The notes beneath the pieces were generated by a model that was not told the DNA's origin, searched no databases, and saw only the letters and a program-made list of their open reading frames with translations. Below, piece after piece: positions 30,313 through 61,067 of a stretch of 64,000 bases of DNA. Origin of the DNA: Patescibacteria group bacterium (GTDB lineage Bacteria > Patescibacteriota > Minisyncoccia > RBG-13-40-8-A); contig JAZDGD010000007.1 of assembly GCA_043807255.1 (NCBI GenBank), positions 17,069-81,068 of the forward strand. Direction: 5' to 3'. Positions within the stretch are counted from its first letter, which is position 1. Each line of letters starts with the position of its first letter. The position numbers were made by a program, and so were the translations under genes.

Positions 30313-30373
30313 AGCAATTTTTTAAATTTTAAATGGTATTGAAATATTTTAAAGTTATCCACAGGCGAAAATC

Positions 30374-30401
30374 TTGACATCGGTCTTCTTAATGGTATAC
30401 T
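30374..30401 (+). promoter_or_regulatory. sigma70 promoter TTGACA-16-TATACT, preceded 9 nt upstream by AGTTATCCACAG (30353-30364)
   Basis: Read directly from the sequence. Confidence 0.6.
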
Positions 30402-30407
30402 GATAGT

Positions 30408-30486
30408 GCGGTCGCAAGATTGCCCTGCTCGCGGATGCGAGTCCGAGATTTAAACTTCGCCTTTTAAAGGCGAGGTTTTGTTTTTA
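30408..30486 (+). ncRNA. candidate small RNA of about 75 nt: promoter, internal hairpins, then an intrinsic terminator (30455-30485)
   Basis: The terminator CTTCGCCTTTTAAAGGCGAGGTTTTGTTTTT is plus-oriented. No ORF lies between the promoter and the terminator. Confidence 0.4.
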
Positions 30487-31114
30487 TAAAAGTAATTCCC
30501 TTTTTTATTCTTTGAGCATTGATATTCAAATCTGCTCTTTCTTTAAGATAATGCGTAATATATCCCGCACTAAATAAAATTACTTTTTTCTTTCTTCTTC
30601 TTAAAAAATTTAACAAATAGGCAAAATCTGCGTCGCTGGAAAATAAACAAAAAGTGTCATATTTGTCTAAGAATCTTATTGCATCAATACAAATTTCGGC
30701 ATCAAAATTACATTTCGGGATGTAAACGTATCTACCTTGATCGTCTTGATCTATGTTTCTTGTTGTGCTTTTTTCTTCGGAGGAATCTAAATAATGTCTA
30801 ATTTTTTGTATCGGTTTGGTAATTGTTTTGTCAAAATATTGTCTTGCTTTACTGATAATTTTGATAGATTTTTGCTTTGTTGTGTCCAGGCCAAAATAAA
30901 ATCTTTTATGCTCTGAAAATAAATTTATGAAACCTGCTAATTTTTCTATATCAACCACCAACTTTTTGTCTTGTGATAAAACATTATCATCGCCATCTCT
31001 TTCGTCTCTTTCGTACCAATAGTTTACATTCCCAAAATCAACAAAACTATAAATTTTACCAAATTTATTTTTATCTATTTCTAAGTTTTCTAATTTAAAC
31101 TCACACAAATCCAT
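30464..31114 (-). CDS. NYN/LabA-like (PIN-like) domain protein
   Basis: FSSDADFAYLL. A paralogous architecture occurs at 36881..37396. Confidence 0.55.
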   Translation of the reverse strand: MDLCEFKLENLEIDKNKFGKIYSFVDFGNVNYWYERDERDGDDNVLSQDKKLVVDIEKLAGFINLFSEHKRFYFGLDTTKQKSIKIISKARQYFDKTITKPIQKIRHYLDSSEEKSTTRNIDQDDQGRYVYIPKCNFDAEICIDAIRFLDKYDTFCLFSSDADFAYLLNFLRRRKKKVILFSAGYITHYLKERADLNINAQRIKKGITFIKTKPRL

Positions 31115-32531: not shown

Positions 32532-33704
32532 CTAAAATATTCCTGACAAATAATAAAGTCCCATTGCCAATAAAACAATCGCTTCAACTAAACTCAACCA
32601 TTTCATTGCTTTGCCCGACACAATTTTTATATTCATCGTGAAAACGGCAATTAGGAAAACGATAATCTCGTCTAACATGTAAAACAAAACATACACTATA
32701 AGATGAAAAATATAACTCGATAAGGAAACTCCCGCATGGGTCATGACTCCCGCAAATAGAACCGGTATCACTGCCGAACAGGGGAATTCTACGATCGTAA
32801 TTACGGCAGCGAAAATTATTACACCCACGATCAATCCCCATATTCCACCTGATTTTTTAAACGCTTCTTGAATTTTTACAGATTGCTTGTTAACGATTTT
32901 ATTTCCTTGACTATCGCAAACTAAATTTTGTTTTTTAGATTTTAAAAATTGTCTTAAAAAATATATTGAACCCAAAATCCCTAAGATTCCTACAAACAAA
33001 TTCATTACTTTTAAAACGGGACTTAAATAATAAAATAATTGATACCACAAAAAAATCAAGGCACCATAAATTATGGCTGTAACTAAAATGTATAATCCAC
33101 CAAAAAGAATAATTTTTGATCGTGATTTCAGGATTAAGACTAATCCCAAAATCATTATTAATGCACCCAAAGAACAAACACTAAATCCATCAAAAAACCC
33201 CAAAATTATTGCTTGCATTAATAACGAATATTTGCTCAAATCTACTTCTCCTAGAATTGGAACATTTATCTTGTTTTTGTCTTTTTCTTCTGGCTTTTCA
33301 GCGTTTAATTGTTTTTCAATTGAATTAATTATTTCTTGACCAGTACTTGATTCGTCGTTAAAGCCCAAAATAAAATCTTCGCCAACAAATGTCATTGGTA
33401 CAGCTCCCAAATATTTATCAGCATTATGTTTTTTGACGGAGTCAATTAATAATTGTCTGTGCGTAATATCGGTGACTAAGTAACGATTAATTTGCACATC
33501 TGGATAATCTGGTGCTATTCTATCCAAAAATGCGCTTTCTGCCTTACAATGAATACACGTTTCAGAATAGAAAAAATTAATCTCTAATTTTATTTCTGCG
33601 GACTTGTCCGCCGAAGCTTTAGCGAAGGCGGGCGCAAAAAAAGGAGCTACGATTGTAAGCCCAATTAAAGCGAACGCAATAAAACCGGATAATCTTTTTG
33701 CCAT
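32532..33704 (-). CDS. secreted thioredoxin-fold domain (CIHC) fused to a CcdA/DsbD-like polytopic membrane domain
   Basis: Signal peptide, CxxC, and two membrane-embedded Cys (FSVCSLG, EFPCSAV). Confidence 0.55.
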   Translation of the reverse strand: MAKRLSGFIAFALIGLTIVAPFFAPAFAKASADKSAEIKLEINFFYSETCIHCKAESAFLDRIAPDYPDVQINRYLVTDITHRQLLIDSVKKHNADKYLGAVPMTFVGEDFILGFNDESSTGQEIINSIEKQLNAEKPEEKDKNKINVPILGEVDLSKYSLLMQAIILGFFDGFSVCSLGALIMILGLVLILKSRSKIILFGGLYILVTAIIYGALIFLWYQLFYYLSPVLKVMNLFVGILGILGSIYFLRQFLKSKKQNLVCDSQGNKIVNKQSVKIQEAFKKSGGIWGLIVGVIIFAAVITIVEFPCSAVIPVLFAGVMTHAGVSLSSYIFHLIVYVLFYMLDEIIVFLIAVFTMNIKIVSGKAMKWLSLVEAIVLLAMGLYYLSGIF

Positions 33705-33814
33705 TGTATTTTAATACTACAATATTTTAATTTTTATTTCCACTGCCTCTTGCTTTTTTCGACGAGACTTGATAGTATGAATACGGATACGCACATTTCA
33801 GAAGGAGGAGATTA

Positions 33815-34132
33815 ATGAAAGATGTAAGCATCGAAAGATTGATTAAAGATGCGCGTCGTGTTCTCGACTATCCTTTTTGGATTCCAGACGTAGAGACGAT
33901 GAGACGATACACGAGAATTCACGATGATCACGATGGAACCTTCCAGGGTGCAATCACTGTGATATTTAGCAAAGATGGCGATGCCTGGGTCGAATTCGAT
34001 CCAACCCACAACGCATCTCCATTGAGATTTCGTGGTGATTTGGGTGGAGGCATGAGTTTACGAACTAAAAATGCTCTTATGATTTTGGCTCTTGCTATTA
34101 AACTGGACAACGAAGAAGCACCCCAGCGCTAG
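33815..34132 (+). CDS. hypothetical protein (105 aa)
   Basis: Strong SD GAAGGAGGAG. A terminator hairpin plus T-run follows at 34166-34196. Confidence 0.5.
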   Translation: MKDVSIERLIKDARRVLDYPFWIPDVETMRRYTRIHDDHDGTFQGAITVIFSKDGDAWVEFDPTHNASPLRFRGDLGGGMSLRTKNALMILALAIKLDNEEAPQR

Positions 34133-34231
34133 CAATCCCAGCAAATTAATCGTTAATCGGTTACGGCCGCATGGTTCGCCCAGCGGCTTTTTTATTTATA
34201 ATTTTGAAAAAGTTATCCACAGACGCCACTA

Positions 34232-34260
34232 TTGATTTTCGGTTTTCTTTCGGTATATAA
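34232..34260 (+). promoter_or_regulatory. promoter TTGATT-17-ATATAA with AGTTATCCACAG 9 nt upstream (34211-34222)
   Basis: Same architecture as the promoters at 30353 and 42506. Confidence 0.5.
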
Positions 34261-34281
34261 TTGTAATATAGTAATGAAATT

Positions 34282-35841
34282 ATGTTAACAGAAAAACAGC
34301 AAAAAATATTCGATTATATCAAGAAATATATAAAGAAAAATAACTACTCGCCTTCTCTCCAAGAGATCGCGAAACGTTTCAAGTTATCATCGATATCTGG
34401 CGTGCACCAACACGTCGAAGCGCTCAAATCAAAAGGCTATTTAAATAAATTTGAAAATCATCCAAGGACAATCCAAATATCAAATAAATTCAAAAGATTA
34501 AATTTTGTAAAAATACCAATTCTCGGAACCATCACCGCCGGACAACCAATAGAAGTTATTGAAACGCTAGGCGAAACAATTAATGTTTCGAAAAACGAAA
34601 TAAGTCCCTATTTTGATTATTATGCCCTTAAAGTCAAAGGCGACAGTATGATCGATGAGGGAATTTTTGACGGAGATACTGTTGTAATTAAAAAACAATC
34701 TACGGCAGAAAATGGCCAAACAGTGGTCGCCATAATAAATCAGAACGAGGCCACCTTAAAGAAAATCTACAAATTAAAAAATATTTTTAAATTGCAACCG
34801 GCAAATCAGAATATGTTACCAATTTATACAAACGAAATTGAGATTAGAGGTGTTCTCGTTAAAACTATTCCTGGTTTTCCAAGCACAAAAAACCAAACAA
34901 CGATCAGAACCCTGGATTTGTTCGCAGGGATTGGTGGCATACGTCTCGGATTCGAAAAGAATGGATTTGAAACAGTATTCTCTAATGATTTTGACGAAAA
35001 TTGCAAGACAACTTACGATTTAAATTTTAAAACCTCAAAACTTGTTACCGAAGACGTAACTAAAATTGGAATCGATGATTTGCCAGAATTTGATTTCTTG
35101 CTAGCAGGATTTCCGTGTCAAGCATTTTCAATTGCTGGATATCGACAAGGATTCAAGGACGAGAAAGGAAGGGGGAATCTATTTTTCGATATTGCGAGAA
35201 TTATTGACGCCCGGAAACCGAAAGGTTTCTTATTGGAAAATGTTAAGAATCTAATTAGCCACGACAATGGAAAAACGTTTAAAATAATAACGGAAACATT
35301 GAAAAATCTTGGCTATCACATTAAACCCGAAGTTTTAAATAGCATGAATTACGGTAACGTTCCACAAAATCGAGAGAGAATCTATATCGTGGGATTTAAA
35401 GACAAAAATAACATAGAGAAATTTAATTTTCCCGAACCCATAAAACTAGAAACAAAAATCAACGATTTTCTGGAAGAAAACGTTGATAATAAATACTATT
35501 ATAACGACAAGCCTCTCTATAAAAAACTCAAAGATTTTGTAAAAGAAGAAAATAAGATTTATCAATGGCGTAGACAATATGTGCGAGAAAATAAAAAAGG
35601 AGTTTGCCCAACGCTAACAGCAAATATGGGAACCGGCGGACACAATGTGCCAATTATAAAAGACAAAAAAGGAATCAGAAAACTGACTCCTCTTGAATGT
35701 TTTAGGTTGCAGGGTTTTTCGAAAGATTTTATATTGCCCAAATTGGCGGATTCTGTTTTATATAAACAGGCCGGAAATTCCGTAACCGTTTCGGTAGTTG
35801 AAAGAATTGCAAAAAAAATAAAAAGCGTAATGGATAATTAA
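34282..35841 (+). CDS. LexA-like repressor (wHTH plus S24 peptidase with Ala-Gly site, Ser and Lys) fused to a DNA (cytosine-5) methyltransferase
   Basis: N-terminal 200 aa are collinear with LexA (ITAGQP, GDSM, TLKK). The C-terminal part carries FAGIGG (motif I), FPCQAFS (IV), ENVKNL (VI), QNRERIY (VIII) and GNSV (X). Confidence 0.85.
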   Translation: MLTEKQQKIFDYIKKYIKKNNYSPSLQEIAKRFKLSSISGVHQHVEALKSKGYLNKFENHPRTIQISNKFKRLNFVKIPILGTITAGQPIEVIETLGETINVSKNEISPYFDYYALKVKGDSMIDEGIFDGDTVVIKKQSTAENGQTVVAIINQNEATLKKIYKLKNIFKLQPANQNMLPIYTNEIEIRGVLVKTIPGFPSTKNQTTIRTLDLFAGIGGIRLGFEKNGFETVFSNDFDENCKTTYDLNFKTSKLVTEDVTKIGIDDLPEFDFLLAGFPCQAFSIAGYRQGFKDEKGRGNLFFDIARIIDARKPKGFLLENVKNLISHDNGKTFKIITETLKNLGYHIKPEVLNSMNYGNVPQNRERIYIVGFKDKNNIEKFNFPEPIKLETKINDFLEENVDNKYYYNDKPLYKKLKDFVKEENKIYQWRRQYVRENKKGVCPTLTANMGTGGHNVPIIKDKKGIRKLTPLECFRLQGFSKDFILPKLADSVLYKQAGNSVTVSVVERIAKKIKSVMDN

Positions 35842-35844
35842 TAA

Positions 35845-36408
35845 TTACCAAACTTTTACATTACACGCAATTGGTTTTAATTTGCATCTTTCAATGATTT
35901 CTTTAGTTATACTAAATCTTGGTCTTCGTTTTTGTTTTTGTTGTTGCCTTAATGTTTGTTTCTTGTTTACTTTGGCATTAAGTATAAATCTAGATGGAAT
36001 TTTATAGACGTTAAAAGTCCCGTCTAGTTTTTTCTCATTATAAAAATCTAAAAAATACAAATCGTCCCATTGAGATTTTGGGCCAAATGTTGTTAAGTCG
36101 TGCTTTATACTAGATGCCTTTATTTGTTCAGCTCTTTTGGTTTTTAAATTAAATGTATCAAAAGATGTTGATGCTTCTCCCCTTAGGGATATAAATCTTT
36201 TCGAACCCGAAAACAAACAAAACGCCACCTCAGACAGACCCTCTGGCAAATTAGGTTCTCGTGATTTATATTCGCGCATACCTAATTTTAATTTTTTCCA
36301 TATATCAAAAAGTGCTTTCCATTTTTTACTGTCTTCTTTGTCAAAGCTCATGAGTTCCACTAAGCATTCCTTACCAAAGATAACGGTTTTGTATTGATCA
36401 ATATGCAT
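35845..36408 (-). CDS. hypothetical protein; candidate cognate type II restriction endonuclease, inferred only from its convergent position next to the methyltransferase
   Basis: Context only. No recognisable motif. Confidence 0.3.
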   Translation of the reverse strand: MHIDQYKTVIFGKECLVELMSFDKEDSKKWKALFDIWKKLKLGMREYKSREPNLPEGLSEVAFCLFSGSKRFISLRGEASTSFDTFNLKTKRAEQIKASSIKHDLTTFGPKSQWDDLYFLDFYNEKKLDGTFNVYKIPSRFILNAKVNKKQTLRQQQKQKRRPRFSITKEIIERCKLKPIACNVKVW

Positions 36409-36541
36409 ATTGTAATTTACAATTATTGTATTATGTTTTTATGATACACCACAGCATCTCCTCTTGGCAAGAGAATTATTATGATGTATAATGTTTTTAT
36501 AATAAAATAAGTAAAATATAGTAAAAGTAATTATTTAATTT

Positions 36542-40971: not shown

Positions 40972-42507
40972 ATGAATAAAGTTTATTCAGCTGCAACAAC
41001 GGGATTAGACGCCGAACTCATTGAGGTGGAGGCAGATTTATCTTCTGGCCTCCGCTTTTTTAGTATCGTTGGCCTTCCCGACAAATCAGTTGAAGAGTCC
41101 AAGGAAAGAATTGCTGCGGCCATAAAAAATAGTGGAGCCGAACCTCCGCATAAACAAAATAAACGCGTAATTATCAACTTGGCACCTGCCGATTTAAGAA
41201 AAGAGGGTTCGGGATATGACCTACCAATTGCTTTAAGTTTTTTATTGTCATCCCAACAAATAGAATTTGATGCTGAAGACAAAATTTTTGTTGGCGAGCT
41301 TGCCTTAAATGGCGAAGTAAGGAGAGTTAATGGGGTTTTACCAATTTGTTTGGCAGCAAAAGAAAAAGGAATTAAAAATGTTTTTGTCCCAAAGTCAAAC
41401 AGCAATGAAGCACGATTAGTGAAAGATATTAACGTCTATCCTGTTGAATCTTTGGCGGAATTAATCGGATTTTTAGAAAATAGAATTGAAATCAAAGCGT
41501 TAGAACCATTTGATGAAAATTTCTTGGAAGGATTTGAAACTGCATTTCCATCAACAGTAGATATGGCATACATTAAGGGCCAGGAAAACGCTAAACGAGC
41601 ATTAGAAATTGCAGCTAGCGGAAATCATAATATCATTATGACCGGCCCACCTGGGTCTGGAAAAACTTTATTGGCCAAAGCAATTCCCACTATTCTACCG
41701 AGAATGGCATGGAGTGAGGTTTTAGAGGTGACTAAAATTTATAGTGTTTCGGGAAAATTATCCCATAAAAAACCATTCATCCACCAAAGACCATTTCGCT
41801 CTCCCCACCATAGCGCGTCAGAAGCAAGTATGATTGGAGGCGGGGGATTTGCAAGACCAGGAGAAATAACTTTAGCACATCGGGGAGTTCTATTTATTGA
41901 TGAATTTCCAGAAATACATCGTGATGTCTTGGAAAGTTTAAGGCAACCGCTTGAAGATGGAGTTGTGCATATTTCTAGGGCAAAGGCGAGTTATAGTTTT
42001 CCTTCAAGATTTATTTTGGTCGCGGCGATGAACCCCTGTCCTTGCGGATATTATGGCGACCCAGAGAAACAATGCACCTGCAATCAACAACAAATCGGCA
42101 AATATCAGCGCAGAATTTCTGGACCAATTATGGATAGAATTGATTTATATGTTGAAGTGCCACACGTTAAATATGGAAAATTAACCGATGAATCGGTTGA
42201 GGGTTCGAGCGAAGAAATTCGAGAAAAGGTGGAAAAGGCAAGGAAAATTCAATTGGAAAGATTTAAAGATGATAATATTGTTACTAATTCAGAAATGAAC
42301 ATCCCTTTAGTTAAAAAGCATTGCCAGACCGATGAGCAAGGCGAAATGTTATTAAAAAATGCAGTAAATAATCTGCATATGTCTGCGCGTGGATATCATC
42401 GCATTCTTAAGCTCGCCCGCACAATCGCCGATCTCGCCGACATGCCCAATATCACCCACATCCACATCGCCGAAGCATTGCAATATAGACCAAAGATGGA
42501 AATATAG
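40972..42507 (+). CDS. comM: Mg-chelatase-like AAA ATPase YifB/ComM. The track's TTG at 40927 is probably not the start
   Basis: GPPGSGKT and a C-terminal YRPK motif; collinear over about 510 aa. Confidence 0.85.
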   Translation: MNKVYSAATTGLDAELIEVEADLSSGLRFFSIVGLPDKSVEESKERIAAAIKNSGAEPPHKQNKRVIINLAPADLRKEGSGYDLPIALSFLLSSQQIEFDAEDKIFVGELALNGEVRRVNGVLPICLAAKEKGIKNVFVPKSNSNEARLVKDINVYPVESLAELIGFLENRIEIKALEPFDENFLEGFETAFPSTVDMAYIKGQENAKRALEIAASGNHNIIMTGPPGSGKTLLAKAIPTILPRMAWSEVLEVTKIYSVSGKLSHKKPFIHQRPFRSPHHSASEASMIGGGGFARPGEITLAHRGVLFIDEFPEIHRDVLESLRQPLEDGVVHISRAKASYSFPSRFILVAAMNPCPCGYYGDPEKQCTCNQQQIGKYQRRISGPIMDRIDLYVEVPHVKYGKLTDESVEGSSEEIREKVEKARKIQLERFKDDNIVTNSEMNIPLVKKHCQTDEQGEMLLKNAVNNLHMSARGYHRILKLARTIADLADMPNITHIHIAEALQYRPKMEI

Positions 42508-42544
42508 TTATCCACAGTATTAACTATTGACAAACATATCTTAT

Positions 42545-42922
42545 ATGATATATACTGATTCTAATGAATATAAAGTAAAATTTTTCGTTGATCCCAAAAC
42601 AGGAAAAGATCCAGTTATGAAATACATTAATGATTTAGACGAAAAACAGAAAGCAAAAGTTTCTAGATTTATCGAATTTTTAAGACAACACGAAGGCGTA
42701 TTAGATGAGCCATACTCAAAACACATTAAAGGCAAAATTCGCGAATTAAGGATTGATTTTGGCAAAAATAGACACAGAATCTTCTATTTTACGTTCATCA
42801 ACAAGAACATCATATTGCTCCACGCATTTTTAAAGCATACGCAAAAAACTCCTGAAACTGAGATAAAAATCGCTGAAAATAATTATAATATTGTAATTAA
42901 TAATCCAAAATTTTATGAATAA
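42545..42922 (+). CDS. higB: HigB/Gp49-like (RelE/ParE superfamily) toxin. Start uncertain: alternatives are 42617 or the TTG at 42527, which is more likely a -35 hexamer
   Basis: IRELRIDFGKNRHRIFYF ... LLHAFLK, similar to Gp49/HigB-2. Confidence 0.6.
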   Translation: MIYTDSNEYKVKFFVDPKTGKDPVMKYINDLDEKQKAKVSRFIEFLRQHEGVLDEPYSKHIKGKIRELRIDFGKNRHRIFYFTFINKNIILLHAFLKHTQKTPETEIKIAENNYNIVINNPKFYE

Positions 42923-53043: not shown

Positions 53044-55980
53044 ATGCTCAACAAATTTCAAAAAATAATAATTTCTTCCATTATATTTTGTTTAATTTTT
53101 GGTTTTGTTTTTAATATATTTCTTACCAGACCAAAAATAGTACAAGCAACTGACGGAGGTGCTGGTTTTTTAAATTTAATGAAAGAGACAGTACTTGACG
53201 CTGTCGGTTGGGGAGTTACGGATATGGTATTGAAACCATTAAAACAAAAAATACAGGATTGGGGGATGGGCAAAACAAGCGATAGCAACACACCATTCTT
53301 TGTTATGGATTGGAAAAAGTTTTGGGACGACGCATTAGATATTGCTTCAGCAAAATTTATAGAAGAACTGGGAGCGACAAAGCTTTGCGGACCATTACAA
53401 ATAAGCATTGGTCAAAATCCAACATTTACTACATATTATAGTGACAAACCACAATACAAAAACTATTCTGCTTGCACGCTTGATAATGTTGTGGATAATG
53501 TTGAGTCGTTTTTTAAAAATCCATCAATTTCTGTTTATGGCTGGGACGCATGGACAGCATTAACTCAACCGAATAATAATTTTTTGGGTGCGTATCTGAT
53601 GGCAGCGCAAAGACAAGATGAATTGGCACAGGAAGAACTTGATGCCAAAAACAAAGAAACCGCAGTAAGCGAGGGGACTAAAAATGAAACAACAACTAAG
53701 GCAACGGACACTGATACTTGTAATAAAAAATGTGATACTGATTTCCCAACCACAACTCCTGGCAACGACATAAAATGGAATGATTGTCTCGACAAGTGCG
53801 AGACAACAACAAAAGGCGTTCCAACACAAAGCGGGGTTAAGAATCTCGGAGCAACAATCAAAGAGAATATGGACAAGGCCCTGGGAGCAGATATGAGCAG
53901 AATCATTAGTGCAGACGAAATCAGTGAACTTGTGGGAGTGTTTTTTAGCGCTGTTTTAAACAAAGCTATTGATGGATTAGGACTAGTCCCATCTTCTGCT
54001 AACCAAACAACCCAAGAACAGAATCGAAACGAAAATAAAGATCTTTACGGATACGGAACATCGGTAGGGCAAACAATTACCCCTGAAATGCAAAAAGACA
54101 TCCGCACTACTATTTTAAATGGCACACTTAAGGGAGTACAAATGATATCGAGAGCAACAGCAAAATGTAAAGATGAAAAAACGATGCTTACTGAATTAGA
54201 TTTCAATAAAAACATTACTGACATGTATTCGGCACAATTAGAAGCATTGTATGTCGGAACAACCGGAATTGCCTTAAAGCCCGACTTTACAGTATTAGAC
54301 TCTCCATTCGCTCCGTTTTCTCTATACGGTTATCGTTGGGGAGAAATTCCTGTAAACAAGATACCAGCTAAGTGCAAAAAGATGATCACTCAGTCAAGCG
54401 GAGGATTAACCGCTTCCTGCAAAGATATTGTTAGCGGTCTTGAGCCAAATTACAGTAAACAATGCACTCAATGTATTTATGATGATAGCGAATTAAATTG
54501 TCCACCTGCACCATATCCGCCATTTTCAAAACCATCCGTATTAACAAAAGCAGTGGTTACTGCCAAACAAGAATTTTATAGTGGTTGTATGAACTGGTAT
54601 GAAGTAACAACCAATAGATGTAAAGAATGTGTGAAAAAGACAGATGAAAAATGCGATCAGGAAGATGGCGCTCAAAAACAAGCATGCATTGAAAGCGTCT
54701 GCAGTAATTACGAAGACCTGAAACCACATGTTGTCTCTACAATAAGCAGTGGCATTGATTTCCATAGTAAGTGTTTGCTTGAAGAAACAAAAACATCTTG
54801 TTTCACCTGCCTTAAAGAATATTTTATGCCTGCGTCATACTGCGATGATATGAGTGCATTTACTGCGCGCGCATTAATAAAATATCCTGGCGTGGTATTG
54901 ATGGGTGACGCCAGAACCAGTGCATATTTTATAGGGAGATACGATTCAACGTTTGCCGATGCATTTGAGGGTGGCACAAAATGTAATAACGATCGAGACG
55001 CAAAGAAAGCAATAGACGTAAGTTTGATTTGTCAAATTATGCCCGACTTTGAAGACAACGGCATAAAGGTCTGTAAACAATATTGTATGGGGCACGGTAT
55101 GACTGAAGCAGAATTAAACGATATTGTGGACAATCGACCAACAAATGAAGATTGTAACAATCAAAAATTAAACATCGGCGGAAGTATAAATGTTTGGAAT
55201 ACTGTTAGCAATGGGAATTTTCAACAATTAAGTAAATGTTGCGCAGCAACAAATACAACAGATCTAAAGAGATACCAAACTTGTATTGGGGGATCAAAAC
55301 CATTGGTAGATGTTCCCCCTGTGTCCCCTTGCACGTTTGCTAAGCCAGTCAATCAAGAACCAGAATGTTATTGTAATGACGGCGAAAGACCGTTGGGATG
55401 GGCTAAGGCAAAAGTTTTTCCAGAATATACCAATGAATCGGATATAAGTTTTTGTACAGATTTCGAATTTCAATCACCTGGCACAAAACGATTAAGAATA
55501 TATACTGACAGCACTCCTGGCGGAGCGGTCGTTTATATCGGCAAAGACAGCTGTACGTATAATGGTACATACAAATTACAAGAACCAACTTCTACTGCTT
55601 GCCCGCCAAGCAACCCATTATTTATGGCCGAGACTTCTTTTGGAACGAATTCACAAGAATTTTATTATAACTTATCAGACACAGGCACGTTGCATGGCGG
55701 AGTATTTAATAATGACTTAACCGACACAAAAGCGACCACAATGCACGTATGCGCTCCCTGTGACCCATCAGATACAGGATATCCCAACTATGGAACAAGC
55801 TTGAATCAATGTTCGGGCAAATTAAGTAGCACTTCTGGAAGCGAAGGGTCTTATGTCCCACCAATCATGCCTGGGGACTGTTCATATACTCCACCAGGAG
55901 GAATGCCATCGTGCCCGAAAGATAAATACAATAGATGCATCCCGCCCCAAGATGATGATCCGATGTGTGAATGCAGATAA
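53044..55980 (+). CDS. large (978 aa) Cys-rich secreted or surface protein, hypothetical
   Basis: N-terminal TM or signal; many Cys. Confidence 0.45.
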   Translation: MLNKFQKIIISSIIFCLIFGFVFNIFLTRPKIVQATDGGAGFLNLMKETVLDAVGWGVTDMVLKPLKQKIQDWGMGKTSDSNTPFFVMDWKKFWDDALDIASAKFIEELGATKLCGPLQISIGQNPTFTTYYSDKPQYKNYSACTLDNVVDNVESFFKNPSISVYGWDAWTALTQPNNNFLGAYLMAAQRQDELAQEELDAKNKETAVSEGTKNETTTKATDTDTCNKKCDTDFPTTTPGNDIKWNDCLDKCETTTKGVPTQSGVKNLGATIKENMDKALGADMSRIISADEISELVGVFFSAVLNKAIDGLGLVPSSANQTTQEQNRNENKDLYGYGTSVGQTITPEMQKDIRTTILNGTLKGVQMISRATAKCKDEKTMLTELDFNKNITDMYSAQLEALYVGTTGIALKPDFTVLDSPFAPFSLYGYRWGEIPVNKIPAKCKKMITQSSGGLTASCKDIVSGLEPNYSKQCTQCIYDDSELNCPPAPYPPFSKPSVLTKAVVTAKQEFYSGCMNWYEVTTNRCKECVKKTDEKCDQEDGAQKQACIESVCSNYEDLKPHVVSTISSGIDFHSKCLLEETKTSCFTCLKEYFMPASYCDDMSAFTARALIKYPGVVLMGDARTSAYFIGRYDSTFADAFEGGTKCNNDRDAKKAIDVSLICQIMPDFEDNGIKVCKQYCMGHGMTEAELNDIVDNRPTNEDCNNQKLNIGGSINVWNTVSNGNFQQLSKCCAATNTTDLKRYQTCIGGSKPLVDVPPVSPCTFAKPVNQEPECYCNDGERPLGWAKAKVFPEYTNESDISFCTDFEFQSPGTKRLRIYTDSTPGGAVVYIGKDSCTYNGTYKLQEPTSTACPPSNPLFMAETSFGTNSQEFYYNLSDTGTLHGGVFNNDLTDTKATTMHVCAPCDPSDTGYPNYGTSLNQCSGKLSSTSGSEGSYVPPIMPGDCSYTPPGGMPSCPKDKYNRCIPPQDDDPMCECR

Positions 55981-56007
55981 AATACAAATATTGAAAAATA
56001 AAAAAAC

Positions 56008-58164
56008 ATGAGAATAAAAATGAAATCAAAATTAAACATAAAAACAATATCCGTTATATCTTGCGTGGCTTTAATCTGCCTGATTGTGCCAATAGCCACC
56101 CACGCTGGTGTTGGCGAGACTATAGCAAGATGGCTTTTTAATGGATTGGCAAGCGTCGTGATGGAAATAGCTAAATTGTTTGTGAATTTGGGAATAAAAA
56201 TAATTGATACAATACTGAAGATTGGCTTTTCTGGCGCCTACAGAAGCATAGCGGAAAGTGGTTGGAAAACCTCTCAAGGCATTGCCAATATGTTTTTCAT
56301 TTTAATAATGGTTTTTATTGCGTTCGCAACAATATTGAGGATTGAAAAGTATGGAGTTAAAAAATTATTGCCCAGACTACTTGGTGTGGCCTTATTGATA
56401 AATTTCAGTTTACCTTTAACATATCTGATGATAGATATTAGCAATATAACAGCAAGAACATTTGTAAATCAACTGACCGGATTAGAGAACAACCTTGGTG
56501 GTAGATTAGTAGACGGACTGAGGGCGAATCTTATGTTGATAGATGATACTTGTGATTTGCCAGATAATGAGGTTTGCCCCGGATCAATGCAACGAGAAGA
56601 ACGAGAGGCGTGCTGGACAAAAGTTTACGATGACGAACATGAGTGCGAAAGAAAGCAGAAAATAGCAAAGGCAGCCCAAGCCACTGCGCCCCCTGTTCAA
56701 GATTTTTGGGAAATAGTAGCAACGTCGCTCGTTTCAGCTGGATTTATGATGTTGGCCGCATTAGTCTTAATTGCCGCAGGGTTAATGCTTATAGTTAGAT
56801 TGATATCCTTGGCAATTCTGGTGATACTTGCTCCTCTGGCTTTTATTTGTTATGCAACCCCATCCTTAGATAAATATGCGAAGGAATGGTGGTCTAATTT
56901 ATTGAAATGGTGTTTCTTTGCTCCTGTCTTTACCTTCTTCTTTTGGTTGGCAGTAAAAAATATTGAGAATTTAAAGTCATTAGGACAATACAACTCAAAA
57001 GTTGACGGAGGGTTGACAAGATTTATAGCAAATACTTCGGATTCTGCTGCTTACTTTATATTTCTTGGTTTAATTTTGGGAGGAATGATAGTCGCTCAAA
57101 AATTAGGAGTAACCGGAGCAGCTGCAACGATGGGCATCGCCAAAAAATGGCAAAAAGGTGCAACCGATTGGGCGAAAAGAAAAACAGTCGATAAAGGAGT
57201 TCGCTTGGGTCAAATGGCTGGTGGTGCAGCACAAAGAGCAGGAGGTGGTCTGATTAAAAAAATTCCTGGGTTCAGAACTTATGGAGCAAAAATGGAGGTT
57301 AAAGGAAAAGAAATGCAACAGAAAATGCTTAAAGCCAAAGACGTTGAAAAAGCAAAGAGAATGTATGAGCAATTTTCGCCCGAAGATCTATCTAATGCAA
57401 TGAATAGCAAAGTCATGAATCTAAGTCCTGCTGAAAAACTAGCATTAGCGCAAGTTGCATCTAGCGATAAATTTAAAAATAAAATTGATGCGAAAGCAGC
57501 CGACAGAGCTGCGGGCACTCTTAAGACTTTTGGCTATGGAAAAGAAGCTAATGATCTAAGGGATGCTAGAATAGACAGCGAACAAACTCAGACAGGACTA
57601 GAAAGCAGAATTGATGAGATGCGAGACAAAGGAGAACTTACAAATATGTCAGCAAAAGCACTTGAAGACCCAAGAGTCATTCAGTATTTAGCAAAAATTT
57701 GTAAGGCAGAAGAATTGGAAGCAATACGTAATAAATCAGGAAAACACGGACTTGCCCTTGTCGGCACAGCACCAACCACCGCGAACCCGATGGGTAGTGG
57801 CCTTACAGGAATGGCAAGCACCATCAGCACCACCAATCCAAATTATCAGGCAGTACAACATGCCTATGCATCACAGTCTGGAGACGCACAGTCACTGATG
57901 GCAAGAGGTCAGTTAAATTCATACGCTGCGACAGCTGGAATTAATGCGTTCAGGAGAGATAGATTTAAATTTAGTACTCCTCCAAGTCCTCAAATTGCAG
58001 GATCGCTTGCTGCCAACATCCCGCTTGCCGATCTAAAAGAAACCCTCCAAAAGGCAGATCCAAAATTAGCTGTAGCGGTCGTCGCCGCAATCAGGAGATT
58101 ATTCCCGACGGGACATCCAAAAAGAGCAATGGTGGACAATGATCAATGGCTAAAATCACTGTAA
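56008..58164 (+). CDS. VirB6/TrbL-like polytopic membrane protein with a long hydrophilic C-terminal extension
   Basis: Signal plus at least five TM segments, in a T4SS-like context. Confidence 0.5.
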   Translation: MRIKMKSKLNIKTISVISCVALICLIVPIATHAGVGETIARWLFNGLASVVMEIAKLFVNLGIKIIDTILKIGFSGAYRSIAESGWKTSQGIANMFFILIMVFIAFATILRIEKYGVKKLLPRLLGVALLINFSLPLTYLMIDISNITARTFVNQLTGLENNLGGRLVDGLRANLMLIDDTCDLPDNEVCPGSMQREEREACWTKVYDDEHECERKQKIAKAAQATAPPVQDFWEIVATSLVSAGFMMLAALVLIAAGLMLIVRLISLAILVILAPLAFICYATPSLDKYAKEWWSNLLKWCFFAPVFTFFFWLAVKNIENLKSLGQYNSKVDGGLTRFIANTSDSAAYFIFLGLILGGMIVAQKLGVTGAAATMGIAKKWQKGATDWAKRKTVDKGVRLGQMAGGAAQRAGGGLIKKIPGFRTYGAKMEVKGKEMQQKMLKAKDVEKAKRMYEQFSPEDLSNAMNSKVMNLSPAEKLALAQVASSDKFKNKIDAKAADRAAGTLKTFGYGKEANDLRDARIDSEQTQTGLESRIDEMRDKGELTNMSAKALEDPRVIQYLAKICKAEELEAIRNKSGKHGLALVGTAPTTANPMGSGLTGMASTISTTNPNYQAVQHAYASQSGDAQSLMARGQLNSYAATAGINAFRRDRFKFSTPPSPQIAGSLAANIPLADLKETLQKADPKLAVAVVAAIRRLFPTGHPKRAMVDNDQWLKSL

Positions 58165-58186
58165 TTTGTATTTAAAAATAATCTAG

Positions 58187-58600
58187 ATGCAATTTCAAGT
58201 ACCACAATTTATTGATATTGAGGACAAGGTTATTGGTCCCATGACAATCAAACAATTCCTGTATTTATTAACATCAGGAGTAACAATATTTATTATTTAT
58301 AAGATATTAAATATTGTTGCCACGATAATTTTAGCGATACCAATTGCCGGAATCGGAATTGCTCTCGCCTTCGTAAGGGTTAGCAACCAGCCATTTGTTA
58401 ATTTTATTAAAAACTTTATGGGCTTTATCAAAAAACCCGATTTCTACGTTTGGAAAAAACCGATTGGCAAAAACAATCTTCCCGAACAAACAGAAGAACG
58501 CGTCGAAATCATAAAGAAAATGCCAGCAAAGACCAAATTAAACCAAGAAACAAAAGATAATTTGCAGGATATGAGTTGGAAAGTAGAAATTGAAAAATAA
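58187..58600 (+). CDS. PrgI-family (VirB3-like) small membrane protein
   Basis: MQFQVPQFIDIEDKVIGPMTIKQF followed by two TM segments. Confidence 0.6.
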   Translation: MQFQVPQFIDIEDKVIGPMTIKQFLYLLTSGVTIFIIYKILNIVATIILAIPIAGIGIALAFVRVSNQPFVNFIKNFMGFIKKPDFYVWKKPIGKNNLPEQTEERVEIIKKMPAKTKLNQETKDNLQDMSWKVEIEK

Positions 58601-59243
58601 TAATTCTATGCCCACAAACACAAAACTTCCGAAGAACGCCAGCGCGGTGCAAAAATTTGTTGAAATCCAGGAAATCAAAAATGGATTAGCAATAATGAAA
58701 GACAACAGCATCAGATCTGTCTGTGCTTGTTCATCTATAAATTTTGATTTATTAAGCCAAACCGAACAAGAAGCTGTTATTAATCGTTTTCAAGAATTTT
58801 TGAATTCCATTGACTTCCCCCTGCAAATCATCGTTGCCTCCCGTCATTTTCAAGTTGAAGGGTATTTAAATCAAATTCGCGAATTAGAAAAAGTCCAAAC
58901 CAATGAATTGTTAAAAATCCAGACCAATGAATATATCAATTTCGTCGATAGCTTTGTGGAATTTGCAAACATAATGAATAAATCATTCTATGTAATCGTA
59001 CCGTTTAATATTGTTGAAACAAAAGATGAAGGATTTATGACAAGAATAAAGAATATTGTTAGTTCCAGTAAGCCAAAAAAAACTAGATTCGAACCAGAAA
59101 AACTAAGTCAGTATAAAGCACAATTAGATCAAAGAATTAATTTGGTCGCTCAAGGACTTCAGGCGTTAGGAATAAAAACCATTCCCTTAAATGATGAACA
59201 GCTAACGCAGTTATATTTCGAGTTTTATAATATCGAAAAGTAA
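58590..59243 (+). CDS. VirB4/TrbE-like N-terminal domain, encoded separately from the ATPase domain
   Basis: Same reading frame as 59289..61067; separated from it by TAA and TGA stops. Confidence 0.45.
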   Translation: MKNNNSMPTNTKLPKNASAVQKFVEIQEIKNGLAIMKDNSIRSVCACSSINFDLLSQTEQEAVINRFQEFLNSIDFPLQIIVASRHFQVEGYLNQIRELEKVQTNELLKIQTNEYINFVDSFVEFANIMNKSFYVIVPFNIVETKDEGFMTRIKNIVSSSKPKKTRFEPEKLSQYKAQLDQRINLVAQGLQALGIKTIPLNDEQLTQLYFEFYNIEK

Positions 59244-59288
59244 TCATCCGCAATCCGCTGATTAGCATTAAATTCGCATATTCGCATT

Positions 59289-61067
59289 ATGTTCAGAAAA
59301 AAACAAACAATAGATAAAATTGCTGAAATTGAGGAAACAAAAGAAATTGAAAGCACGTTGGCAGATACAATTTCTCCTTCGGCTCTTCAAATTACTTCAA
59401 ATTATATTCAAATCGGTGAAAAATTCGCCCGAACGTTTTTTATAATTACCTATCCCCGATTCTTAACTGTAAATTGGTTATCGCCGATTATCAATTTGGA
59501 CAGAATATTTAATTTGGCAATGTTTGTGCATCCTACTGACACGGGAATAATTTTAAAAAAATTAAGACGCAAGGTAACTCAAATTCAATCACAAATCAAC
59601 TCCGAACAAGAGGCGGGAAAAGTTAGAAATCCGATTTTGGAAACTGCCAGCAGTGATGTTGAAGACCTGCGAGACAAATTAATTCAGGGAACGGAAAAAT
59701 TTTTTAAATACTCACTTTATATCACCATCTTTGAAGATTCTCTTGAAAAACTCAATGAAGCAGAAGAACAAATTATGGGAATCTTTGAGGCAAAGATGAT
59801 TTATGCCAAACCAGCGATATTCCAACAACAAATTGGATTAAATTCTACATTCCCGTTCGGCAAAGACCAATTATTTATTACTAATTCTCTAAACACCGCC
59901 CCACTTTCAACTATCTTTCCATTTGTCTCTTCTAATCTGTCGTCAAATAAAGGAATCCTCTATGGAATCAATCGCCACAATAACAGCTTGATAATTTTCG
60001 ATAGATTTTCGATGGAAAATGGCAATATGGTGATTTTTGGAAAATCAGGAGGAGGAAAGTCGTATGCAGTAAAAGTAGAAATTTTAAGATCTTTGATGTT
60101 TGGAACTGACGTAATAGTTGTTGACCCAGAAAACGAATATCAACATTTGGCCGAAACAGTTGATGGCGCATACTTTAAAATATCACTAACCTCCGATAGT
60201 CATATTAATCCTTTTGACCTTTCAATTCCCGATGGAGACGAAACAACCGAAGATGTTGTGCGTTCAAAAATAATGGATTTAATTGGCCTTTTAAGAGTTG
60301 CCCTGGGAGAATTAACCCCCGAAGAGAATTCCATTTTAGACAGGGCATTAACCGAAACATACGCCTCAAAAGATATTACTTTCCAATCAGACCTTAAAAA
60401 TATCACGCCACCACTAATGCAAGACCTGGAAACAGTTTTAAATAATATGGAAGGAGGTGACAGAATTGCTAAGCGACTCGAAAGATACACCAAGGGCAGT
60501 TTCGCGGGATTTTTGAACCAGCCCACAAATATTGATATTAACAAAGGCCTTATTGTTTTCAGCACTCGAGATATGGAAGACGAATTAAAACCAGTAGCGA
60601 TGTATTTAATCTTACAATATATATGGAATTTAATCCGCTCTCAATTAAAAAAACGCATTATGATTGTCGACGAGGCCTGGTGGATGTTAAAGAGTGAGGC
60701 GGGGGGATCATTTTTGCACGGCATAGCCAAAAGATGCAGAAAATATTGGCTTGGGTTGACCACAATTACTCAAGACATCCCCGATTTTATGAATTCTGCC
60801 TACGGCAAACCAATTGTCTCTAATTCTTCGATTCAAATACTTTTCAAACAATCCCCTTCAACGATTGAGGTTGTGCAACAAACATTTAATTTGACTGATG
60901 AAGAAAAATATTTATTATTGCAAGCAGACGTTGGTGAAGGAATTTTCTTCGCTGGATTAAAACATGCCGCAATAAAGGTGGTTGCATCCTATACTGAAGA
61001 TCAAATTGTTACGACCAATCCAGAACAAATCGCAAAAATTAATCAAGCAAAAGAGGATTTAAAATAA
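59289..61067 (+). CDS. VirB4/TraC/TrbE-family conjugation or T4SS ATPase (C-terminal ATPase part)
   Basis: Walker A FGKSGGGKS and Walker B VVDEAW. Confidence 0.75.
   Translation: MFRKKQTIDKIAEIEETKEIESTLADTISPSALQITSNYIQIGEKFARTFFIITYPRFLTVNWLSPIINLDRIFNLAMFVHPTDTGIILKKLRRKVTQIQSQINSEQEAGKVRNPILETASSDVEDLRDKLIQGTEKFFKYSLYITIFEDSLEKLNEAEEQIMGIFEAKMIYAKPAIFQQQIGLNSTFPFGKDQLFITNSLNTAPLSTIFPFVSSNLSSNKGILYGINRHNNSLIIFDRFSMENGNMVIFGKSGGGKSYAVKVEILRSLMFGTDVIVVDPENEYQHLAETVDGAYFKISLTSDSHINPFDLSIPDGDETTEDVVRSKIMDLIGLLRVALGELTPEENSILDRALTETYASKDITFQSDLKNITPPLMQDLETVLNNMEGGDRIAKRLERYTKGSFAGFLNQPTNIDINKGLIVFSTRDMEDELKPVAMYLILQYIWNLIRSQLKKRIMIVDEAWWMLKSEAGGSFLHGIAKRCRKYWLGLTTITQDIPDFMNSAYGKPIVSNSSIQILFKQSPSTIEVVQQTFNLTDEEKYLLLQADVGEGIFFAGLKHAAIKVVASYTEDQIVTTNPEQIAKINQAKEDLK

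Follow-up and report, generated by a model that had tools for sequence, protein, structure and literature searches.

The 64,000-nucleotide stretch of DNA analysed here (the window) comes from a member of the Patescibacteria (candidate phyla radiation, CPR) and contains a gene predicted to encode a complete LexA repressor of the Patescibacteria type translationally fused to a cytosine-5 (C5) DNA methyltransferase. Together with a convergent gene for a restriction endonuclease, this fusion gene forms what its sequence identifies as a type II restriction–modification cassette. We consider it reasonably probable that the best explanation of the whole—the anatomy of the cassette together with self-repression and damage-induced expression of the methyltransferase—is the right one, and methylation probably rises when the chromosome is damaged.

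Patescibacteria make up a very large and mostly uncultured share of bacterial diversity. To our knowledge, they are largely without CRISPR (clustered regularly interspaced short palindromic repeats) and rely on restriction–modification for defence. A LexA repressor mounted on the protective methyltransferase would link the DNA-damage response directly to the marking of self and non-self DNA.

Architecture of the fusion protein

A preliminary description of this DNA had read the gene as a full LexA joined directly to a C5 methyltransferase, and a single open reading frame (ORF) of 519 amino acids (aa) with three full-length Pfam domains bears this out: LexA_DNA_bind (PF01726; residues 2–63, 66.5 bits), Peptidase_S24 (PF00717; residues 79–193, 92.3 bits) and DNA_methylase (PF00145; residues 208–514, 321 bits, profile positions 1–323 of 324). 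Both halves also exceeded their NCBIfam cut-offs, with 185 bits against the lexA equivalog TIGR00498 (cut-off 111) and 346 bits against dcm (TIGR00675). Other helix-turn-helix (HTH) families in Pfam and NCBIfam all fell below the curated cut-off in the N-terminal 200 aa, where YlxM alone appeared besides (21 bits against 80). The protein has been deposited at NCBI in exact copy as MFH1129427.1 and the endonuclease as MFH1129428.1, both on a 98.6-kb contig of a metagenome-assembled genome. Features of the locus and of the wider window are collected in Table 1.

Table 1. Coordinates of features in the window, with the evidence for each.
Feature	Position	Strand	Evidence or remarks
12-mer AGTTATCCACAG, holding a perfect DnaA-box consensus TTATCCACA (34213-34221)	34211..34222	+	9 nt 5′ of the -35 element
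-35 element TTGATT of fusion promoter	34232..34237	+	Consensus scan: 18-nt spacer, TATAAT, 10/12 positions
Putative operator TTCGG-N6-TTCGG (TTCGGTTTTCTTTCGG, 11-bp period), presumed LexA (SOS) box	34238..34253	+	Fills the promoter spacer
-10 element TATAAT of fusion promoter	34256..34261	+	Consensus scan and comparison of relatives
LexA-C5 methyltransferase fusion gene	34282-35841	+	One uninterrupted reading frame, 519 aa
LexA winged-helix DNA-binding domain, aa 1-65	34282..34476	+	PF01726, 66.5 bits; aligns to 3k2z and 1jhh
S24 peptidase / LexA dimerisation domain, aa 79-193	34516..34860	+	PF00717, 92.3 bits; S122 at nt 34645-34647, K160 at nt 34759-34761
A86-G87 codons, predicted self-cleavage bond	34537..34542	+	Aligned to E. 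coli Ala84-Gly85
Short variable linker, aa 194-207, from S24 domain to methyltransferase	34861..34902	+	Conservation and pLDDT
C5 cytosine DNA methyltransferase domain, aa 208-519	34903..35841	+	PF00145; catalytic C279 at nt 35116-35118; stop codon 35839-35841
Bsp6I-family type II restriction endonuclease, 187 aa	35845..36408	-	PF09504 RE_Bsp6I, 57.8 bits, cut-off 25; NCBI name of MFH1129428.1
Candidate endonuclease promoter TTGCCA-18-TATCAT	36441..36470	-	Consensus match only, 10/12 positions
Candidate small RNA region	30374-30490	+	Promoter TTGACA-17-TATACT, ~75-nt transcript, hairpin plus T-run terminator (CTTCGCCTTTTAAAGGCGAGG-TTTTGTTTTT)
Gp49/HigB-like toxin gene (PF05973), 3′ of the third 12-mer copy	42527-42922	+	Pfam
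Secretion or conjugation-type cluster	53044-61067		TrbL/VirB6-like 56008-58164, TraG/VirB4-like P-loop 59289-61067

Alignment to the LexA structures of Escherichia coli (1JHH) and Thermotoga maritima (3K2Z, the best solved relative of this part, E=1.4e-38) places A86–G87 at the scissile Ala84–Gly85 bond of the E. coli protein, S122 (in GDSM) at the nucleophile Ser119 and K160 (in TLKK) at the general base Lys156, in agreement with the winged HTH, Ala–Gly site and Ser/Lys dyad proposed at the outset. M.HhaI, the best solved relative of the methyltransferase part (E=6e-62), can be aligned with it over the whole length, and in this alignment motifs I (DLFAGIGG), IV (GFPCQ, with C279), VI (ENV, residues 319–321), VIII (QNRER, 362–366) and X (GNS, 498–500) are complete, as had been described. 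An AlphaFold2 model of the fusion contains three folded domains (mean predicted local distance difference test, pLDDT, 81), with helices at residues 4–20, 26–33 and 38–50 of the DNA-binding domain. Confidence is low at residues 70–73, 92–96, 199–205 and 281–286, with pLDDT < 50 at 199–205.

Conservation and spread

The fusion architecture is a widespread feature of the Patescibacteria and is not private to the source genome. The best 120 protein matches, taken from a collection of 5.8 billion proteins and originating from NCBI, JGI, ENA and Logan assemblies, were 509–542 aa long and 65–88% identical, and all carried the same three Pfam domains, so that the architecture of S24 peptidase plus methylase was recovered by database search. 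A scan of relatives with one genome per species yielded 519, of which the best 80 (L001–L080) were used for locus comparisons; nearly all of these are full-length, two being broken by contig ends, and they are 62–70% identical to the fusion. Fusion-bearing records that name a lineage are assigned to Moran-, Nomura-, Giovannoni-, Staskawicz-, Uhr-, Falkow-, Yanofsky- and Shapirobacteria and other Patescibacteria, while some bear other automated labels. As 62–70% identity spans distant Patescibacteria classes, the comparison suggests that the fusion has spread horizontally. Clustering at 50% gave one full-length representative of the family, plus fragments, and existing annotations name its members only as ‘transcriptional repressor LexA’ or as ‘DNA (cytosine-5)-methyltransferase’.

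The preliminary description had itself raised the prospect of a frameshift or assembly error joining separate lexA and dcm genes. Nothing speaks for such an artefact, though unfused relatives of the LexA half and of the methyltransferase half are present on viral contigs, and the same continuous ORF recurs in the best 120 proteins from independent sources, in the best 80 of the 519 relatives and in the exact copy MFH1129427.1; we regard the chance of it as negligible.

A second early doubt, that the N-terminal part might lack catalytic residues, is answered by the finding that A86, G87, S122 and K160, together with the methyltransferase motifs, are unchanged in 121 of 121 sequences. Conservation is lowest in the linker (aa 194–207), where the top-residue frequency averages 0.46. 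From the invariant residues we infer that the fusion would undergo self-cleavage stimulated by RecA filaments.

The same pattern bears on a simpler view, in which the LexA part is an autorepressor resembling the C proteins of restriction–modification systems, with an S24 domain that does nothing but dimerise and no response to damage. Autoregulating C5 methyltransferases with an N-terminal DNA-binding region provide a precedent (M.SsoII, M.Ecl18kI, M.EcoRII, M.MspI and M.ScrFIA), and the operator described below lies mainly at the fusion’s own promoter. We nevertheless hold an autorepressor of this kind to be distinctly improbable, because cleavage residues that stay invariant while the surrounding linker varies argue that cleavage is not dispensable; moreover, three short LexA-like ORFs with altered cleavage residues (L114, L153 and L189, described below) illustrate decay once the constraint is lost.

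The fusion promoter and a candidate SOS box

The window and the 80 related loci have a common promoter layout: a TTGnnn -35 element, a spacer taken up by a direct repeat and TATAAT directly after it. The consensus of the repeat in fusion promoters is TTTTCGGTTTATTTTCGGTT, with an 11-bp period. Of the 81 fusion promoters, 66 have the pattern TTCG-N7-TTCG, which fits exactly into the space from the -35 to the -10 element, and TATAAT follows directly 3′ of the second TTCGG(T) in nearly all relatives. When scored with a position-weight matrix for the operator, the fusion site reached 28.3 bits, against 17.3 bits for the runner-up in the window. Six loci depart from the usual recognition helix, ST(I/V)H(E/Q)H, in having STAHHH(V/I)K, and their half-sites are TTCTA or TTCGA, not TTCGG; because the half-sites covary with the recognition helix, we read the LexA domain as the protein that binds the repeat.

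Metagenome contigs were then scanned for the TTCGG-N6-TTCGG box plus a -10 element. On Patescibacteria-like contigs, the same promoter layout appeared upstream of stand-alone lexA genes of 197–208 aa (L088, L092, L099, L124, L127 and L143), whose products are 43–49% identical to the LexA part of the fusion, and upstream of a recA gene (L126; Pfam RecA, 409 bits). Because this layout precedes both stand-alone lexA genes and recA, TTCGG-N6-TTCGG is very probably the Patescibacteria LexA (SOS) box, and we conclude from these comparisons that the fusion gene has the phylum’s canonical lexA promoter; the repeat would thereby provide a candidate SOS box for the phylum. The coupling of methylation or restriction control to DNA damage that was proposed for the fusion at the start gains strength from this probable SOS box, found at the fusion, at stand-alone lexA and at recA.

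Most pattern matches away from LexA genes were discarded, being either fortuitous matches in contigs rich in GC or tandem copies of the 11-mer TTCGGTTATAA. Arrays of this 11-mer, which resemble the operator by chance, were seen in metagenome contigs unrelated to one another (L098, L122, L137, L169, L199 and others), some of them from human-gut assemblies.

Several other genes were seen behind the box or beside recA. Small related proteins of 84–89 aa (L142, L191 and L206), which match no family, are candidate new SOS-regulated genes of the Patescibacteria. The stand-alone LexA proteins of L088, L092, L099, L124 and L127 have Cys–Gly at the cleavage position (IACGEP or IACGQP), as does E. coli UmuD, while that of L143 has Ala–Gly. 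Short LexA-like ORFs of 121–128 aa (L114, L136, L153 and L189) follow the same promoter with no methyltransferase attached; in L114, L153 and L189, the Ala–Gly pair is replaced by AF or AR and the catalytic Ser by His or Asn. Such ORFs may be degenerate copies or versions that cannot be cleaved. In L086 (33–1349), a contig with a viral classification, a LexA-like gene is immediately followed by recA.

The promoter also bears on a further possibility, which overlaps with the explanation favoured here: that the fusion is the cell’s only LexA and master SOS repressor, a mobile cassette having captured or replaced the host lexA, with the methyltransferase mostly a passenger. Its main consequence would be regulatory addiction, loss of the cassette derepressing the SOS response. 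The fusion gene has a complete canonical lexA promoter (DnaA-box-like element, -35 element, SOS box and -10 element), as at stand-alone lexA, its product exceeds the lexA equivalog cut-off, a second lexA is absent from the 64-kb window and from all 80 flanking regions, and the box also stands upstream of recA. However, flanking genes vary between loci, identity of 62–70% across distant classes suggests horizontal spread and speaks against vertical inheritance as a core regulator, the phylum also has stand-alone lexA genes behind this box, and other SOS boxes were not found in the ~0.92 Mb around fusion loci. That the fusion is the sole LexA is thus a possibility to be taken seriously, if not a likely one.

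A DnaA-box-like element upstream of the promoter

The preliminary description had pointed out that the motif AGTTATCCACAG in the fusion promoter is shared with other promoters. This proved correct: the window has three exact copies, all on the plus strand (30353–30364, 34211–34222 and 42506–42517), against 0.16 expected, and each lies 9 nt 5′ of a TTGACA-like -35 element. The element is separate from the repressor’s operator. Of 79 related loci, 51 have the exact 9-mer TTATCCACA in the 160 nt before the start of the fusion gene and 13 more have it with one mismatch, and 50 of the 77 exact TTATCCACA boxes in 852 kb of related loci sit at the fusion promoter. A DnaA-box-like element is also found at stand-alone Patescibacteria lexA promoters, and outside the window the 12-mer was seen at L092, L099, L124, L127 and L197. 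The 12-mer is probably the binding site of a host factor, with DnaA as a candidate, and may couple its promoters to replication status through DnaA or another factor. As a LexA operator, AGTTATCCACAG was rejected: it is neither repeated nor palindromic, it also occurs at two unrelated promoters in the window, and it is the TTCGG repeat that covaries with the DNA-binding domain instead.

The convergent endonuclease and its replacements

The 187-aa convergent ORF had been put forward as a candidate restriction endonuclease but called unassigned; the candidacy stands, while the lack of assignment does not, given the PF09504 match and the Bsp6I name at NCBI. Its stop codon and that of the methyltransferase are 3 bp apart, which leaves no room for a terminator. 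RE_Bsp6I homologues occupy the same position in 22 related loci, with 39–72% identity and the same length of 187 aa. The endonuclease promoter region has no LexA box by the matrix scan. In the window, no small HTH ORF that might be a C-protein gene lies between 36409 and rpsO (36542); 14 of the 80 related loci do have one, a 73-aa C-protein-like HTH_3 gene on the far side of the endonuclease gene. In eight related loci, a gene for the mismatch endonuclease Vsr stands directly upstream of the fusion. The product of a C5 methyltransferase, 5-methylcytosine, is mutagenic, and Vsr as a frequent neighbour fits this cost.

With Bsp6I homologues in only 22 of 80 loci, the fusion could have passed for a mostly orphan methyltransferase, an idea dropped once clustering of neighbours gave another convergent gene in nearly all remaining loci. 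Among the 78 related loci with enough downstream DNA, the gene after the fusion is convergent and ≤78 bp from the fusion stop codon in 76, and ≤30 bp from it in 75. These partner genes fall into eight sequence-unrelated clusters, including RE_Bsp6I (23 loci with the window included), a 150-aa PD-(D/E)XK protein (12 loci) and a 388-aa protein with an NgoFVII C-terminal DNA-binding domain (nine loci). Pfam named three of the eight families and NCBIfam none, leaving five with no match in either.

Fusions with partners of different families are as similar to one another as those with partners of the same family (mean identity 71.7% versus 72.2%), and this also holds for residues 372–470, taken as the target-recognition region (78.3% versus 78.4%). 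Fusions that are 92–97% identical can have different partners (for example, L058 versus L062 and L037 versus L044). As similarity is independent of partner family, one methyltransferase of apparently constant specificity seems to be paired with rapidly exchanged genes, which are presumably restriction enzymes. Other flanking genes are unrelated between loci, which makes the cassette look mobile. The LexA fusion could explain how fast swapping of restriction enzymes beside one constant methyltransferase is tolerated.

The endonuclease and methyltransferase are predicted to act on the same sequence, on the strength of their pairing in the 22 related loci and of a protein (P0244) in which RE_Bsp6I and a related C5 methyltransferase form a single chain. 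We take the target of the Bsp6I family to be GCNGC, and the fusion probably methylates this sequence or one much like it.

Links between LexA and other methyltransferases

The box search also recovered LexA plus S24 fused to a D12 (Dam-class) adenine methyltransferase (L133, 1374–2909, 511 aa) and to an N6_N4 methyltransferase (L149, 3429–4895 on the minus strand, 488 aa), both behind a TTCGG-N6-TTCGG box and each followed by a convergent gene; these convergent partners had no NCBIfam match. The D12 fusion family has at least 120 proteins (P0271–P0390) with 69–75% identity, 119 of them with all three Pfam domains, and is as large as the C5 fusion family among the matches listed. LexA parts of methyltransferase fusions are about 43–72% identical among themselves, against 43–57% to stand-alone LexA. 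In one unfused operon (L177, 102–2990), genes for a C5 methyltransferase with an 80-aa N-terminal extension, an EcoRII-type endonuclease and Vsr come directly behind a TTGACA / TTCGG-N6-TTCGG / TATAAT promoter, and this restriction–modification system is apparently under LexA control in trans. Judged from these loci, the link between LexA and methyltransferases is general across three methyltransferase classes: C5, Dam-class and N4/N6-class.

Other domain combinations were noted in passing. P0253 combines LexA, a C5 methyltransferase and an Eco57I-like methyltransferase domain, and P0168 combines RadC with a related C5 methyltransferase. Behind the same box, L175 (4894–5760) encodes LexA plus S24 with a C-terminal HTH_17 (excisionase-like) domain in 288 aa.

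A bolder proposal, which we put forward tentatively and think rather doubtful, is that in many Patescibacteria mobile cassettes took over the SOS master regulator, so that a LexA–methyltransferase fusion of the C5, Dam or N4/N6 class is the only LexA. If this were true, one self-cleaving protein would control the damage response, genome methylation and the tolerance of changing restriction enzymes; losing the cassette would unleash the SOS response, and DNA damage would switch the methylome.

Proposed mechanism

According to the mechanism we propose, a dimer of the fusion protein, formed through the S24 domain, would bind the box in its own promoter and repress its own transcription, and so maintain low, homeostatic amounts of a C5 methyltransferase that may be mutagenic. 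DNA damage would give rise to RecA filaments, whether through breaks made by the cassette’s own endonuclease at unmethylated sites or through single-stranded DNA upon DNA entry. These filaments would stimulate self-cleavage at A86–G87, detaching the DNA-binding domain and derepressing the promoter. The resulting increase in methyltransferase output would be an SOS-wired form of restriction alleviation, the extra enzyme protecting sites left unmethylated by repair synthesis, under-methylation or DNA entry. Antisense transcription into the unterminated convergent endonuclease gene could possibly lower endonuclease expression as well. The fusion protein probably acts in the host SOS regulon too, because the box is common to recA and lexA.

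The opposite outcome can also be imagined: DNA damage might destroy the methyltransferase if the cleaved S24–methyltransferase fragment were degraded, so that methylation lapses, the endonuclease cuts the chromosome, and heavy or phage-induced damage ends in an abortive-infection-like suicide. In E. coli, the proteases ClpXP and Lon break down the fragments of cleaved LexA, the cleavage machinery of the fusion is invariant, and the endonuclease gene, with no LexA box, would stay expressed. Cleavage, however, also derepresses the promoter, so new protein would be made; existing methyl groups persist, so loss of the enzyme would matter only after replication; and L177, which puts both methyltransferase and endonuclease behind an SOS box, fits induction better. 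We therefore judge a suicide response unlikely.

A number of points weigh against damage-induced methylation as proposed here. It is a prediction that the protein binds DNA, that it cleaves itself and depends on RecA for this, that it methylates the sequence assigned to it and that its partner is an active endonuclease. The regulon of the fusion itself is a prediction too, its operator being found essentially only at its own promoter in ~0.92 Mb. Over this length, which takes in the window and all 80 related loci including flanking DNA, no other site scored strongly in the matrix scan, and a uvrD/pcrA-like gene in the window has no operator. The absence of a second site was at first read as pure autoregulation, and the idea of a private autoregulator unlinked to SOS was dropped after the same promoter had been found at stand-alone lexA and recA. 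A recA promoter with the box was recovered only once, though, most pattern matches outside LexA genes being noise. The covariation of recognition helix and operator may stem from a single evolutionary event. The window has fewer GCNGC and GCSGC sites than expected (ratios of 0.74 and 0.47, respectively), the avoidance of GCNGC being modest, and the predicted specificity derives only from the family name of the partner. Finally, degradation of the S24–methyltransferase fragment after cleavage would reverse the sign of the response.

Comparison with known systems

The fusion resembles the LexA proteins of the SOS systems of E. coli and T. maritima in its winged helix, Ala–Gly bond, Ser/Lys dyad and a putative operator in its own promoter that also occurs at recA. 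It is unlike classic LexA in having a 312-aa C-terminal C5 methyltransferase and in being encoded in a restriction–modification cassette, and its putative operator repeats directly, with a period of 11 bp, whereas the classic LexA operator is a palindrome. The Alphaproteobacterial LexA box, GTTC-N7-GTTC, is likewise a direct repeat with an 11-bp period (PMC8565304). The putative Patescibacteria box shares that period, and some of its sites (GTTCGG-N5-GTTCGG at L010) contain GTTC-N7-GTTC; however, the conserved core here is TTCGG, and the lineage is unrelated.

Enzymes of the M.SsoII type share with the fusion an N-terminal DNA-binding module on a type II C5 methyltransferase and a presumed operator in their own promoter. 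In those enzymes the N-terminal region is short and lacks a protease domain, whereas the fusion has a full LexA with self-cleavage machinery and, probably, the host SOS box as its target, which would add an input from damage; its likeness to regulation of the SsoII/EcoRII type thus appears to be one of function, not of homology. Bsp6I/Fnu4HI-type (GCNGC) systems and M.HhaI also offer parallels, the endonuclease here belonging to RE_Bsp6I and M.HhaI being the closest methyltransferase in the PDB. We know of no LexA part in the described Bsp6I system.

Type I restriction is alleviated after DNA damage, in E. coli through degradation of HsdR by ClpXP. As in our proposal, this shields the chromosome from the cell’s own restriction enzyme when damage and repair leave unmodified sites, but it works by proteolysis of the restriction subunit, whereas here a type II methyltransferase would be induced transcriptionally via a fused sensor. 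The fusion accordingly suggests a type II equivalent of restriction alleviation. Damage-responsive regulators of defence systems are also known, including CapH/CapP of the cyclic-oligonucleotide-based antiphage signalling system (CBASS) and the WYL-domain proteins BrxR/CapW. These, too, rely on a repressor at a defence promoter that is inactivated by damage signals (by proteolysis in the case of CapH), but they are separate proteins unrelated to LexA, while here LexA itself is covalently joined to the system’s enzyme.

The components of the cassette each come from known families, and self-regulating methyltransferases and damage-responsive defence regulators have been described already, but the fusion architecture is undescribed in the literature searched. 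That literature, in which no account of a LexA–methyltransferase fusion in Patescibacteria or CPR was found, did not extend to the directly relevant 2017 paper by Sanchez-Osuna, Barbe and Erill (Environ Microbiol 19:3465), whose subject is the SOS network of this phylum. The fusion and endonuclease proteins are small and look soluble, so the predictions made here could be tested without culturing the organism.

Other features of the window

Gene orientation switches at about 33700–34300, from nearly all minus (2.5–33.7 kb) to nearly all plus (34.3–64 kb), and cumulative GC skew has its minimum at 34–35 kb. A replication origin near 34 kb was considered on the basis of the strand switch and skew minimum and rejected, there being only one DnaA box there, of a kind that accompanies lexA promoters elsewhere. 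Nor did the window proteins that were checked include the product of a dnaA gene.

The candidate small RNA at ~30.4 kb, which matched no Rfam family, is headed by the first copy of the 12-mer and lies antisense over the 3′ end of an NYN gene on the minus strand. In the secretion or conjugation-type cluster, a 978-aa protein without a Pfam match adjoins the TrbL/VirB6-like and TraG/VirB4-like genes.

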